Shown: piece after piece, positions 17,846-55,029 of the stretch
How positions within the stretch are numbered: position 1 is the first letter of the stretch
Layout of the letters: the number at the start of each line of letters is the position of its first letter
NCBI GenBank assembly: GCA_964016885.1
Contig: OZ024747.1
Location: 86,676,001-86,740,000, forward strand
Length of the DNA stretch: 64,000 bases
Source: Eledone cirrhosa
Taxonomy: Eukaryota
Direction: 5' to 3'
Notes under the pieces: model-generated
Told to the model about the DNA's origin: nothing
Database searches by the model: none
The model's input: only the letters and a program-made list of their open reading frames with translations
Made by a program: the position numbers and the translations under genes

Positions 17846-17880
17846 TTAATAGTAATAATAATTGTTTCTACTTTTTGGCA

Positions 17881-19557
17881 TTTTTTATTTGGGTGATCCA
17901 TTTTTTATTTGGGGGATCCATTTTTTATTTGGGGGATCCATTTTTTATTTGGGGGATCCATTTTTTATTTGGGGGATCCATTTTTTATTTGGGTGATCCA
18001 TTTTTTATTTGTGGGACCCATTTTTTATTTGGGGGATCCATTTTTTATTTGGGGGATCCATTTTTTATTTGGGTGGTCCATTTTTTATTTGGGGGATCCA
18101 TTTTTTATTTGAGGGATCCATTTTTTATTTGGGTGATCCATTTTTTATTTGGGGGATCCATTTTTTATTTGGGTGATCCACTTTTTATTTGGGGGATCCA
18201 TTTTTTATTTGGGTGATCCATTTTTTATTTGGGGGATCCATTTTTTATTTGGGGGATCCATTTTTTATTTGGGGGATCCATTTTTTATTTGGGTGATCCA
18301 TTTTTTATTTGTGGGACCCATTTTTTATTTGAGGGATCCATTTTTTATTTGGGGGATCCATTTTTTATTTGGGGGATCCATTTTTTATTTGGGTGATCCA
18401 TTTTTTATTTGGGGGATCCATTATTTATTTGGGTGATCCATTTTTTATTTGGGTGATCCATTTTTTATTTGGGTGATCCATTTTTTATTTGGGGGATCCA
18501 TTTTTTATTTGGGGATCCATTTTTTATTTGGGGGATCCATTTTTTATTTGGGCGATCCATTTTTTATTTGGGTGATCCATTTTTTATTTGGGTGATCCAT
18601 TTTTTATTTGGGGTATCCATTTTTTATTTGGGGATCCATTTTTTATTTGGGGGATCCATTTTTTATTTGGGTGATCTATTTTTTATTTGGGGGATCCATT
18701 TTTTATTTGGGTGATCCATTTTTTATTTGGGTGATCCATTTTTTTATTTGGGTGATCCATTTTTTATTTGGGGGATCCATTTTTTATTTGGGGATCCATT
18801 TTTTATTTGGGGGATCCATTTTTTATTTGGGTGATCCATTTTTTATTTGGGTGATCCATTTTTTATTTGGGTGATCCATTTTTTATTTGGGGATCCATTT
18901 TTTATTTGGGGGATCCATTTTTTATTTGGGTGATCTATTTTTTATTTGGGGGATCCATTTTTTATTTGGGTGATCCATTTTTTATTTGGGTGATCCATTT
19001 TTTATTTGGGTGATCCATTTTTTATTTGGGGGATCCATTTTTTTATTTGCGTGATCCATTTTTTATTTGGTGGATCCATTTTTTATTTGGGTGATCCATT
19101 TTTTATTTGGCGTATCCATTTTTTATTTGGGTGATCCATTTTTTATTTGGGGGATCCATTTTTTATTTGGGTGATCCATTTTTTATTTGGGTGATCCATT
19201 TTTATTTGGGGGATCCATTTTTTATTTGGGTGATCCATTTTTTATTTGGGGATCCATTTTTTATTTGGGGGATCCATTTTTTATTTGGGTGATCCATTTT
19301 TTATGTGGCGGATCCATTTTTTATTTGGGTGGTCCATTTTTTATTTGGGTGATGCATTTTTTATTTGGGGGATCCATTTTTTATTTGGGGGATCCATTTT
19401 TTATTTGATGGATTCCCCAAATAAAAAATGGATCCCCCAAATAAAAAATGGATCACCCAAATAAAAAATGGATCACCCAAATAAAAAATGGATCACCCAA
19501 ATAAAAAATGGATCACCCAAATAAAAAATGGATCCCCCAAATAAAAAGTGGATCACC
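17881..19557. repeat. 20-bp satellite (TTTTTTATTTGGG[G/T]GATCCA)n with orientation switch near 19410
   Basis: About 76 forward units followed by about 7 inverted units. Confidence 0.97.
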
Positions 19558-48690: not shown

Positions 48691-50864
48691 TGAGCAGAGC
48701 TGGATTTAATGGGGGCAAGAGGGGAAATTGCTCCAGGCCCACCGCAGCAGGAGCCCTGCCAGCAATGGATGTAGTGATTCATTTGTGCCCTCTGCTGGGC
48801 GTTTTAGTTTATCACATTGATAACTAGCATGTGATTACCCTTTTAGTACCAGTGTCACGATAAATGCACTTAGCTCATCCTGTAAATTGTTAGTATTGGT
48901 GCCTTGTTCGAATATACATAGTCCACTGAGTAAAGCAGTTGTGCTGCCTTCGCAAAAACAATTTACCCAGTAAACATTCTAAAGTGATTATGTTAGGAAG
49001 GGCATCCAAACATAGAAACTTTGCCAAATATTTAATGAATGTGGAAGATGAGGTCGGTCCGATATGTCTGATCTCGGACTGTGACAACCCGTCCAACACA
49101 TAGAAGAGTGGAAAGTGGACGTTGAATGAGGATGGCTAGATTTTTAAACTTAATACCTGTATGTACCCGCCAAAGTCTAAATTCGGCCATGCAGATGAAG
49201 AACATACTAATTCTTTCTAACATTTTCAAAAGTCCAACGTTTTAGGAAAAGATGAAAGTTGGTAATTTAGACCTCAATACATAAATGATACTTATTTTAT
49301 CAACCTCGGATTGGTGAAAAGCAAAGTTGTGGTCGGCAAGATTTGAACTCCGAGGAAGGAAATAATAATAAAATAAGAAAACCAAGTTTGCTGATATGGC
49401 AACAACCTTTGTTAACTATCATGTTTTAAAAACGTTCTGAATGTGTTAAAAATACGAAATTAAAAACCATGCTGGATGTTTGCTAGATCCAATAACACAT
49501 AACAACTGATGCTGCTGTGTAATCCATAGAATTAGATTATCTATTATTAAATCTTCATGTATTCACTGTCAATACACCTTGTATTTGATGGGTGAACCAA
49601 GCGAGTATGTTTTTATGTTTATGGTGCCCTGAATAATATGTAAAGATTGATGGATTTCTTTATCATGCATGCGTCTACAGATAATGACCAATACATTCCG
49701 AATTGTTATTCATCATTAGATTCTATGAATACATCAAAACTTTGTGTAAAGGTGTGTCTAAATTGGATTAGGCAGTTTGAGTCATGATAGTGAGTCGCCC
49801 GTTCTGTCCTTCAAAAAGTCTCATTATTTCATGTCCACGCTGCTTAAAAAAATAACACGAGTTGCACGGGTAATTGAAAGAGTCAACCTTGTCTCAAACA
49901 GTTACACTGAATGTCTCTGAGAATTAGATCAAGGGTTCATGTAACTACAGAGTGCTCAGCCATTAGCAAGTTAATTTCTTAAGTATGATATTCCAGTGTT
50001 TGAACAACTGGAACACTCACTGTCCGAAACGATGAAAATCCCAAAACAACATAACAACTTGATGAGACGGAGTTTTCAATACATTTATGTCCGCTAATGC
50101 CAACTGGAAAACACCAGATACATTTTGTTTCGGGGTTCCGGTGAGCAGGATTGCGAATGCGTTACTTCGGTGAATAACTAGAGAAATACACAGAAGTAAA
50201 TGTTTAAAGAAATGATTTATTTCAACGAGTTTGAATGTTGGGAACATTTCAAAAATTGATCGCTTTTCCCCGGTAATTTTCAATAAAAACATGTCACTTT
50301 CATTAAGCTAAGCAATGATGTTGTATCACTGACGTTACTAATTTTCATTTTATACAGTTATAAATAGTTTGATGTACTATAGTAGAAACAGATAAATGTC
50401 ATGATTATTGTCTGAGGCTGCCATGAATAATAGATTTATTAATAATATTGTCGAATTCTGCAATAATTTTGCGAAAATGTATGGTAATTTATTACTGGAT
50501 AAACTGTACAATTAGCAGTAACATGTTTAAATAAACACATTGAAGTGAACAAATCCACATAGTTACATCTAAAATTCCTTCCTTAAACCAAAAATATATA
50601 TATATCACGATAAATTAACGGAGCCATAGACTCTCGCTATTCCCTGTCAGTCTTGTGCTCAAAGGAGAAGGAATCCCGAGCCCTTTATAATACAATATGT
50701 AGAAAAGATAACACACTAGAGAGAGAGAGAGATAGTGCACCATCAATCAAACAGGGAAAAAACCACCAGTGTATGGAATCTATAGCCCATGGAAGGCAAA
50801 GTAGACACACAATAATTAAAAGTATAAATTAAAGTGTAAATACATACCTCCATAACTATCTAAC

Positions 50865-50947
50865 ACACACGTACAAATCCAAAGAGATCTGTTTCACCAA
50901 AAAAGTTGTTGACAGAAATGACTAGCCAATGGTTCATCAGCGTGTGT
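50865..50947 (-). ncRNA. Type-I hammerhead ribozyme candidate (complete three-stem fold)
   Basis: acacacg-CTGATGA-acca..tggt-GAAA-cagatc tctttg gatttg-TA-cgtgtgt. Confidence 0.8.
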
Positions 50948-51350
50948 AAGGCTATACATTTCAGACAACACTAAAAGAATCTAAAGCGACTGTTTTTCCC
51001 TGGTTGACTGATGGCGCACTATCTCTCTCTCAAGTGAGTTATCTTTTCTACATATTGTATTATAAAGGGCTCGGGATTCCTTCTCCTTTGAGCACATTAC
51101 TGACAGGGAATAGCGAGAGTCTATGGCTCCGTTAATTTATCGTGATATTTCGCTCTTTATATACAATCTTTCCCCCCTCTCTCTCTGTTTGGTTGAGTAC
51201 ACTTCTCTTAGTGGTTTGGGCTGCCCTTTCTACAGCTCGTCCCTCAGACACCACTGGTTACTGCCCTAGGCACGCTGTGAATTCTCTCTCCCAGGTGTGG
51301 CTGGACGGGCACTTTAGATTCTCTTAGTGTTGTCTGAAATGTATATCCTT

Positions 51351-51433
51351 ACACATGCTGATGAACCATGGTCTAATCATTTCTGTCAACAACTTATTTG
51401 GCGAAACAGATCTTTTTGGATTTGTACGTGTGT
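51351..51433 (+). ncRNA. Second copy of the type-I hammerhead
   Basis: acacatg-CTGATGA-acca..tggc-GAAA-cagatc..gatttg-TA-cgtgtgt; A-C mismatch at the base of stem II. Confidence 0.7.
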
Positions 51434-51600
51434 GTTAGATAGTTATCGAGGTATGTATTTACACTTTAATTTATACTTTTAATTATTGTGTGTCTACTCT
51501 GCCTTCCATGGGCTACAGATTCCATACACTGGTGGTTTTTCCCTGTTTGACTGATGGCGCACTATCTCTCTCTCTAGTGTGTTATCTTTTCTACATATTG

Positions 51601-51648
<48 letters not shown>

Positions 51649-52086
51649 AATATTATTTATAGTTATATATACACTATATACAACTATAAACAGGAAAGGT
51701 TATTAATTTACTACGTTATTACCAGTAAGAAAAATAGCTCAATGTAAATACATCAGATGTTTTACTCACCAGGAATATAAATTACACAATAATCAAAACT
51801 ATGTTCAAATCATTTTATTGCTGACAATCGTTGGGAATCCTCGGAGCACTAGTGTGACTCTTTAATTATTATACAATTCTCTTGTAATCTCTGTCACATC
51901 CATTCCACTCTGTAAATACGAAACTGTTGATGACAACATTAATATCCATGTATCTATATGATTGTTCTGTTGAATAGGAAGTTAATTATATGTCCAAACT
52001 TTGCTAGTGCTCCGAGGATTCCAAACGAAAGTTTGTAAGAAACGATTGTCAGCAATAAAATGATTTGAACATAGTTTTGTGTAATT

Positions 52087-52330: not shown

Positions 52331-52594
52331 ATTATTAGATATGTTAGCTATCGCCGTATTTTGACTAAAGAAATTAAAGAAATTATTTAGCCTGATAGTG
52401 GGGTTAAGAACCCTCGGAGAAATGGAAAAAGATGAGTATTGACGTGTACGTCAATACTCATCTTTTTCCATTTCTCCGAGGGTTCTTAACCCCACTATCA
52501 GGCTAAATAATTTCTTTAATTTCTTTAGTCAAAATACGGCGATAGCTAACATTTCTAATAATTTCAAATCCACTCGCTGTTTCGAAAATATTCT

Positions 52595-53805: not shown

Positions 53806-53830
<25 letters not shown>

Positions 53831-53837
<7 letters not shown>

Positions 53838-54955
53838 ATACTTTGGGAGGGTCATGTTGCCAATAAGAAACACACGCACCAGTTGCTTTCACTTCAATTT
53901 ATTATATATTTATAAATTTACAAATCTACAAACTTATAAATTTCTGGTTGGTTGGTTGGTTCCACAACCAGATAGTTGTTTATATATAGTCATAGTCCTT
54001 TCGTCACACACTCTGTGACCTCTTCAGTGACAGGGGATTCCTGTCTTTGTTTCTGTGCCTTTCCTTTCTTCTGTCCTACGCCATTTTGTTTCTGTGTGTG
54101 TGTTGTGTGCTTAGTTTGCGCATGCGCCACATCCGGGTGTCTGTGTGTGTTTGTGTTCATTTGTCTATTTGTTTATTTATTTATTTATTTATTGTTGGTT
54201 GGTTTTTTGTTCTATGTGTGTGTGTGTTTTCATTTTGTCCTTAATTGTAAGTTGTGATGTTGCTGTTCCACTCATATTTTCTATTTAATTTTGGTTGTAA
54301 TTCTTTTATGCTTACTGCCTCTGTAATTTGCCTAAACATTGCATCTTTTCTGTGTGTGGATTCTATTTTTATTTCTATGTTCTCTAATTTACCCCCGTGC
54401 TCTATCTTAGCATGTTAGTAAAGCACAGATGATTCTTTATTATCTTGAAGGTCTCGCCAGTGTTCATTTATTCGTTCCCCTATACTACGAGCTGTCTCAC
54501 CTATGTACACTATATTTTTGTTTCTACAATGTCCTTCAGTACATCTTATGCTACACACACACATAGAACAAACAACCAACCAACAATAAATAAATAAATA
54601 AATAAACAAATAGATAAATGAACACAAACACACCCAGACACCCGGATGTGGCGCATGCGCAAACTGAGCACACAACACACACACAGAAACAAAATGGCGT
54701 AGGACAGAAGAAAGGAAAGGCACAGAAACAAAGACAGGAATCCCCAGTCACTGAAGAGGTCACAGAGTGTGTGACGAAAGGACTATGACTATATATAAAC
54801 AACTATCTGGTTGTGGAACCAACCAACCAACCAGAAATTTATAAGTTTGTAGATTTGTAGATTTATAAATTTATAAATATATAATAAATTGAAGTGAAAG
54901 CAACTGGTGCGTGTGTTTCTTATTGGCAACATGACCCTCCCAAAGTATAACAATA
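53831..54955 (-). mobile_element. 5'-truncated Penelope-like element: GIY-YIG endonuclease remnant with inverted pseudo-LTRs
   Basis: CTEGHC..VYIGETARSIGERINEH at about 54420-54545; 53831-54226 is the reverse complement of 54553-54955; TA-rich termini. Confidence 0.92.
54746..54790 (+). ncRNA. Minimal hammerhead in the pseudo-LTR (mirror copy at 53989-54031, minus strand)
   Basis: agtca-CTGAAGA-g gtcaca gagtg tgtgac-GAAA-ggac-TA-tgact. Confidence 0.7.
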
Positions 54956-55029
54956 TCGGTTTCAACACACGATTTCAGATAAAGAATCTTGCTAAACAAA
55001 TTCAGAAACGAAATATATATATATATATA

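Follow-up and report, generated by a model that had tools for sequence, protein, structure and literature searches.

The window analysed here is a 64,000-nucleotide stretch of the Eledone cirrhosa genome (contig OZ024747.1), and it contains an insertion of two unequal arms arranged head to head (Table 1), for which we use a unit numbering in which u1 is window position 51062. Self-comparison bears out the geometry described in an earlier note on this DNA. A repeat of about 70 bp with a period of 543 is present as a direct repeat of 70 nt (50992-51061 and 51535-51604, 96% identical, spacing 543), the inverted arm (50602-50993) reads unbroken through the junction, as u251-543 and then u1-87, at 93% identity, and each outer end carries (TA)n, a long run on the right and about 5 units on the left. 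The description of the element as terminally redundant is to be abandoned, as the 70-bp repeat is not terminal and corresponds to the 5' truncation point of the window copy; the defined ends are two 3' ends, at u543 (end A) and u87 (end B). Because the start of the upstream partial repeat varies from u192 to u516 in 62 arms of the family, the redundancy is merely the point at which this plus arm was truncated. The window copy carries a tail on its inverted arm and none on its plus arm and so obeys the rule of one arm per 3' end (A+B) described below; tails of this kind are described for Penelope-like elements (PLEs) in the passages cited from PMC8557442 and PMC3846280. There is one hammerhead per strand, so that the locus could not itself yield a circle by double cleavage; two consecutive complete units are absent, and the locus is most likely a dead-end copy.

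Table 1. Features of the two-armed insertion (positions in the window)
Feature	Position	Strand	Basis
Whole head-to-head two-armed insertion of the non-autonomous element	50602..51604	.	repeat and self-comparison
Short (AT)n target flank past end B	50594..50601	.	
Inverted arm, 5'-truncated at u244-251, through u543 into u1-87, stopping at 3' end B	50602..50993	-	
Tail of 87 nt (u1-87) separating 3' ends A and B, at the outer end of the inverted arm only	50602..50688	-	
Inverted-arm type I hammerhead, 7-bp stem I without mismatch, 10.1-11.1 pair A-U; cleavage predicted at 50872/50871	50865..50947	-	
5'-truncated partial upstream repeat (u474-543), its length peculiar to the window copy	50992..51061	+	
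Predicted three-way RNA junction around end A (internal read-through), UCCCU/AGGGA helix round two hairpins	50997..51110	+	
One full 543-nt unit with 3' end A, tail absent	51062..51604	+	
Strand 5' of stem I, predicted pseudoknot partner of loop II (10 + 6 pairs)	51332..51349	+	
Type I hammerhead of the plus arm; predicted cut 51426/51427	51351..51433	+	
Loop II segment, predicted partner of 51332-51349	51370..51387	+	
(TA)n target flank past end A	51605..51634	.	

The predicted three-way junction around end A is likely a recognition region for the reverse transcriptase (RT); its covariation is weak, with a double change in 2 of its 25 pairs. Three sequencing runs gave genomic-DNA-like signals at the locus, comprising loose ends into TA at 51148 and 51603, a 51604-to-51062 joint and joints between opposite strands, and these runs carry no information on expression. 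A candidate intron (donor-like GAG/GT at ~51449, acceptor-like site at ~51578) was rejected, the AG being lost in copies of subfamilies B, D and E and no such joint appearing in the sequencing runs. Other repeats are present in the same window. Short inverted repeats (~51833-51854 and 52000-52024) and a duplicated segment lie right beside the element at 51825-52075, and a near-perfect 115-bp palindrome (99%) at 52331-52562, flanked by long (TA)n runs, is possibly the two-armed stump of another PLE-type family. Further away, at 17879-19557, there is a 20-bp minisatellite of 77 copies whose orientation flips at 19408.

The plus-arm hammerhead is made up of stem I (51351-51357/51427-51433), CUGAUGA (51358-51364), a weak stem II (51365-68/51399-402), GAAA (51403-51406), stem III (51406-12/51419-25) and GUA (51424-51426), and both arms contain, as reported earlier, one type I hammerhead with 7-bp stems I and III, an intact CUGAUGA/GAAA core and the GUA site. 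The core nucleotides C3-U4-G5-A6-N7-G8-A9, G12-A13-A14, A15.1-U16.1 and H17 are intact in both arms and in 152 of 167 segments, a set picked in part by the core pattern. Conservation of the core and stem I is directly observed between subfamilies A and D, where 0 of 25 positions differ compared with 141 of 502 elsewhere (p 0.0007), a contrast that is inflated because 17 of the 25 positions belonged to the pattern by which subfamily D was retrieved. Stem I shows no covariation at all, stem III has double changes between A and D as judged by eye, and stem II consists of only 3-4 weak pairs, with a predicted pairing probability of ~0.02 without the pseudoknot described below; a different stem II, GCUAA/UUGGC, was considered and does not hold in subfamily B. 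The 10.1-11.1 pair, called highly conserved in hammerheads as G10.1-C11.1 in the passage cited from PMC4209133, is A·C in 74, A-U in 54 and something else in 5 of 133 parsed copies, and never G-C. An Rfam hammerhead scan, which the earlier note had proposed, gave no match at the gathering score in the window nor at E<=10 in 50500-51700. Such motifs are missed by Rfam scans because of the predicted long loop II pairing.

The insert in stem II had been described as unusually long, and the long loop is indeed present, although what it contains is a covarying pairing partner and not a bare loop. Loop II is complementary to the strand directly 5' of stem I over ~16 pairs. Among 54 distinct sequences, 79% of the cells at the 16 pairs are paired, compared with 28-55% in slid controls, and the covariation that had been proposed as a check is directly visible as double changes between distant subfamilies at 5 of the 16 pairs, which rest on few lineage splits; a shuffle control is beaten by the cell count and not by the count of double-change pairs (439/500). 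Cognate duplexes have medians of -19.7 (A:A) and -17.0 (D:D) kcal/mol versus -7.7 and -6.0 kcal/mol when the strands are swapped, and in 49 of the 54 copies the natural loop outperforms its own shuffled version (p<0.05). When the whole unit was scanned for A versus D, with thresholds fixed after the helix had been seen, the loop II helix alone was returned and 0 of 200 shuffles reached 5 double changes; a looser 10-pair scan gave 11 hits, which is not above its null of 4-22. Private changes in the window plus arm weaken the helix (-13.6 versus ~-20.7), the 6-pair part being affected. A competing hairpin (u249-258/u271-280) is weak and is broken in subfamily E. The loop II helix crosses stems I and II, starting at their far ends, which is where activating pseudoknots lie according to the passage cited from PMC3088659. 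The long loop II likely engages the strand 5' of stem I in a pseudoknot, and the tertiary contact linking stem I with stem II is predicted to be present in this covarying form, although the helix could instead hold the ribozyme off.

The element belongs to a large family. In the host assembly (3.0 Gb, 1,796 contigs), a search with the unit yielded 3,016 first-look candidates, and among the 40 that were scored the other full-length copies are 90-93% identical to it; a divergent copy used as query gave 1,103 candidates, and the exact ribozyme pattern has 879 genome matches compared with 0 for the reversed control, well above what chance would give. The search for tandem, permuted and inverted copies that the earlier note had suggested reveals a dispersed family with two-armed and some tandem copies, and the unit is a protein-free repeat of ~540 bases in well over a thousand scattered copies. 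There are at least five subfamilies, 67-87% identical to the window unit, and despite this divergence the unit length is 531-543 in the four subfamilies compared. The GC content of the units is low (37-42%), and whole-unit folding is modestly better than that of shuffles (z -2.3, -2.6). The absence of a meaningful ORF is a direct observation here too, with no ORF of note at the locus and longest ATG frames of 19-88 aa in four natural arms; an RT plus GIY-YIG ORF, the hallmark of autonomous PLEs, is absent from the unit. At least two head-to-tail hammerheads are found at 6 of the ~88 loci represented by the first 100 of the 879 pattern matches, and these tandem loci could be source loci. The units of a 2.4-mer locus are evenly diverged; a 3.6-mer (L188) was rejected as proof of rolling reverse transcription and is likely a local duplication, because its three units are 100% identical. 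A subfamily-B variant with a 14-nt duplication in hammerhead loop III occurs at four loci (L160, L162, L169 and L173).

Copy structure, ends and target could be read directly from 200 loci, which are top hits and not a random sample and which correspond to 148 distinct insertions. The 3' ends fall at two fixed sites, A (u542/543) and B (u87), 87 nt apart, and the 5' ends are scattered, with 62 arms ending in a second pass at u192-516 to give a 5' truncation with a partial tandem, as in pseudo-LTRs (pLTRs). Two arms, placed head to head, are present in 95 of the 148 insertions, and the 83 with both ends canonical show directly that each end is used by one arm: 81 are A+B, one is A+A and one is B+B (binomial p 3.6e-22 versus independent 50:50 use). 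One-armed insertions end at A in 26 instances and at B in 24; the others are 12 two-armed insertions with one non-canonical end and 3 that are unclassed. The arms of the sole B+B insertion differ at subfamily-diagnostic sites, so it likely represents two events. The distant subfamilies D and E (31 loci, with one near-duplicate dropped and 3 loci overlapping the first set) contribute 15 A+B, 0 A+A and 0 B+B insertions. Canonical ends run into TA repeats in 213 of 230 cases, and with these all of the marks of Penelope-type integration are found, namely 5' truncation, partial tandem, inverted arm, one-end tail and TA target. Arms cross both the unit junction and the ribozyme site, and 4 of 232 exceed two units. 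First-pass arms show no 5'-end pile-up at the cut site, and one among second-pass arms was rejected as well, 5 of the 18 at risk stopping in u356-365 and not at one base. Chimeric arms from two templates were also considered, and none is clear among 46 pairs apart from L134. At one inter-arm junction (L177:2073-2162) there are short patches copied from elsewhere in the unit, resembling templated insertions.

The same genome contains an ORF-bearing PLE family of 19,126 candidates, with a 1241-aa frame ending in a C-terminal GIY-YIG domain; frames in the family extend up to 1277 aa, the GIY-YIG has a CxxxxCxxC linker and an N-rich insert, and the hammerhead is minimal. All 12 of its loci with both ends in view, from 37 examined, are A'+B', with a tail of 58 nt. 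A two-armed 5'-truncated copy of this autonomous family, with one arm per end, lies in the window at 53830-55014. A Pfam search of the 1241-aa frame gave no match, nor did a genome search with PF20815, in which the controls were likewise silent. At least eight other type I hammerhead families are present in the flanks of the loci we studied (for example L056:2742, L079, L095, L123 and L157), mostly minimal with a palindromic stem III and one with a stem III of 5-6 bp, and PLE ends with hammerheads abound in the genome. Among the PLE loci compared, covering the dominant family and two relatives, no DNA similarity to the unit was found, and a candidate helper-PLE ORF end upstream at L070 proved to be a separate TA-flanked repeat.

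These relationships bear on whether the unit has an independent life. It is improbable, in our judgement, that the copies are nothing more than ends (pseudo-LTRs) left by an autonomous PLE after 5' truncation or internal deletion. The insertion scars are the same in kind as those of autonomous PLEs, and at one locus (L011/L272) an arm and a PLE ORF are fused at 1 nt, the PLE part being the 3.8-kb 3' portion of an autonomous PLE (L272:1591-6067, G000:C28). This fusion is ambiguous between a template switch and a deletion between neighbouring insertions; the L011 insertion would be A+A' and may reflect two events plus a deletion. Elsewhere, however, the continuation of a long arm past u1 is always u543 again and never an ORF end, the unit length is maintained down to 67% identity, and PLE protein matches occur in the 1.5-kb flanks of only 18 of 178 family loci, the close ones being set apart by TA runs save at L011. 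Nor do the 5' flanks of 51 one-armed copies share junction-adjacent sequence beyond one pair. The earlier note had weighed the possibility that copies are always attached to a Penelope ORF; apart from the ambiguous L011 fusion none of the sampled copies is the end of a PLE ORF, and they are not the deleted pseudo-LTR pair of any ORF-bearing element sampled. Its proposal of a Penelope-mobilised RNA survives in the form of an element that is non-autonomous, carries a hammerhead and shows integration marks of the Penelope type, shorn of the terminal redundancy and the bare stem II loop. More improbable still is a satellite or foldback/MITE-like repeat that spreads as DNA and has a chance or relic hammerhead. 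Inverted arms would be expected of such a repeat, and the 3.6-mer with three identical units points to local duplication or assembly collapse, but the fixed 3' ends, variable 5' truncation, dispersal, unequal arms and A+B rule are marks of retrotransposition, the core is conserved and loop II covaries. The end structure refutes spread as DNA for most copies.

Its scars mark the element as a non-autonomous PLE, and it would work in the manner of an animal retrozyme; we are confident in describing it as a ~540-nt non-coding unit, likely copied by PLE machinery, with two 3' ends in (TA)n and a hammerhead, likely braced by a pseudoknot, whose predicted action is to cleave tandem transcripts to RNA of unit length. 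A PLE RT-endonuclease supplied in trans likely copies the unit. The PLE protein, probably as a dimer, would nick both strands of a TA run, one cDNA would start at end A and another at end B, and both would run back along a template of more than unit length and stop at variable points, the two cDNAs then being joined head to head. In the passages cited from PMC11167929, the tail is mapped to the interval bounded by two RT start sites, and a dimer is predicted. The template may be a circle formed by hammerhead cleavage and ligation or an uncut tandem transcript, and we see the chances of the circle as about even: it accounts for arms that cross the junction and the cut site, and an uncut tandem transcript does so too. 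A circular template is proposed in the passage cited from PMC4209133; in PMC11167929, as excerpted, hammerhead mutants are unimpaired for insertion in vitro and uncut RNA is the main template.

A competing account that we take seriously, while placing it somewhat short of even, keeps the same non-autonomous PLE and has a few tandem source loci supply the template as a linear transcript that stays uncut, with no circle. The hammerhead would merely trim the 5' end or act rarely, and the loop II helix may be a repressive hairpin released by protein. Uncut RNA is the dominant substrate in the excerpts of PMC11167929, where the PAc hammerhead cuts only with protein, and the tandem loci needed exist (the 6 of ~88 noted above, among the first 100 pattern matches). 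On the other hand, the core and stem III are intact across subfamilies, stem III having the A-versus-D double changes judged by eye, and the 5' ends form no exact pile-up at the cut site, near which they scatter over u356-367. As for repression, the helix (~-20 kcal/mol) greatly exceeds stem II in strength and takes the place of stem I when a D copy is given a nested fold, but it begins at the distal ends of these two stems, the site of activating pseudoknots in the passage cited from PMC3088659. The fullest version of the retrozyme reading, a lineage whose hammerhead is active as a monomer on a ~16-pair pseudoknot and whose ~540-nt circle is read by a PLE RT dimer from two obligatorily paired starts, one on each target strand, we put forward only tentatively and with more doubt than belief. 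If it is true, it would provide direct genomic evidence of PLE-mobilised retrozymes, and PLE integration would be a fixed asymmetric form of twin-priming.

The case for retrozymes moving on PLEs is argued from co-occurrence and pLTR phylogeny in bioRxiv 10.64898/2026.07.22.740005; here the retrozyme-like unit itself bears the PLE integration scar, in hundreds of countable copies. The near-strict rule of one arm per start site quantifies a feature for which earlier accounts used 'often' or 'optional' and sets limits on models of how PLEs integrate, and the small template together with natural subfamily swaps offers ready test material. The long loop II pairing would widen the known range of hammerhead tertiary contacts. 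A literature search and the passages cited from PMC13282606, PMC6962438, PMC6765202 and PMC10085705, those of the first being silent on ribozymes, gave no account of this family or of a loop II pairing as long as this one; the family may already be catalogued in Repbase/Dfam.

Compared with animal non-LTR retrozymes, as presented in excerpts of PMC7229834 and bioRxiv 10.64898/2026.07.22.740005, the element likewise has a low-GC unit that lacks an ORF and carries a single type I hammerhead, forms head-to-tail multimers in some cases, shares its genome with PLEs and is proposed to be mobilised by them. It is unlike them in that most copies are dispersed and shorter than 1.7 units and do not form arrays, and its 540 nt exceed the 170-400 nt of the invertebrate retrozyme circles studied while falling within the 51-972 bp of bioRxiv 10.64898/2026.07.22.740005. 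It further differs in its explicit PLE tail, inverted-arm scars and long covarying loop II pairing. The likeness to insertions of endonuclease-bearing (EN+) PLEs, in the passages cited from PMC8557442, PMC3846280 and PMC11167929, extends to 5' truncation, partial tandems, a head-to-head inverted arm, a one-end tail, two RT start sites, (TA)n targets and a hammerhead upstream of the start sites. In contrast to EN+ PLEs, it has no ORF, and its tail is 87 nt and not 30-40 nt (PMC8557442); the 30-40-bp PLE tail is often at one end only in the cited passages of PMC8557442 and PMC3846280. Its stem III is full-size, whereas minimal palindromic hammerheads are typical of animal PLEs in the part of PMC4209133 cited. 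The non-autonomous Chlamys elements in the cited passages of PMC8557442, such as MRC1, are likewise non-autonomous PLEs with pLTRs and head-to-tail copies, but as a rule their 3' sequence is also that of an autonomous family, and our element has no such partner among the PLE loci compared; moreover, these PLEs with an N-terminal EN lack canonical hammerheads according to the abstract of that paper, and our element carries a predicted one. Finally, with the pseudoknot-stabilised hammerheads of Perreault et al. (2011; PMC3088659, as excerpted) it has in common a weak stem II and a Watson-Crick link joining stem I to stem II at their far ends, although the examples there have 4-6 pairs, and the link predicted here comprises ~16 pairs in two helices and belongs to an animal retroelement.
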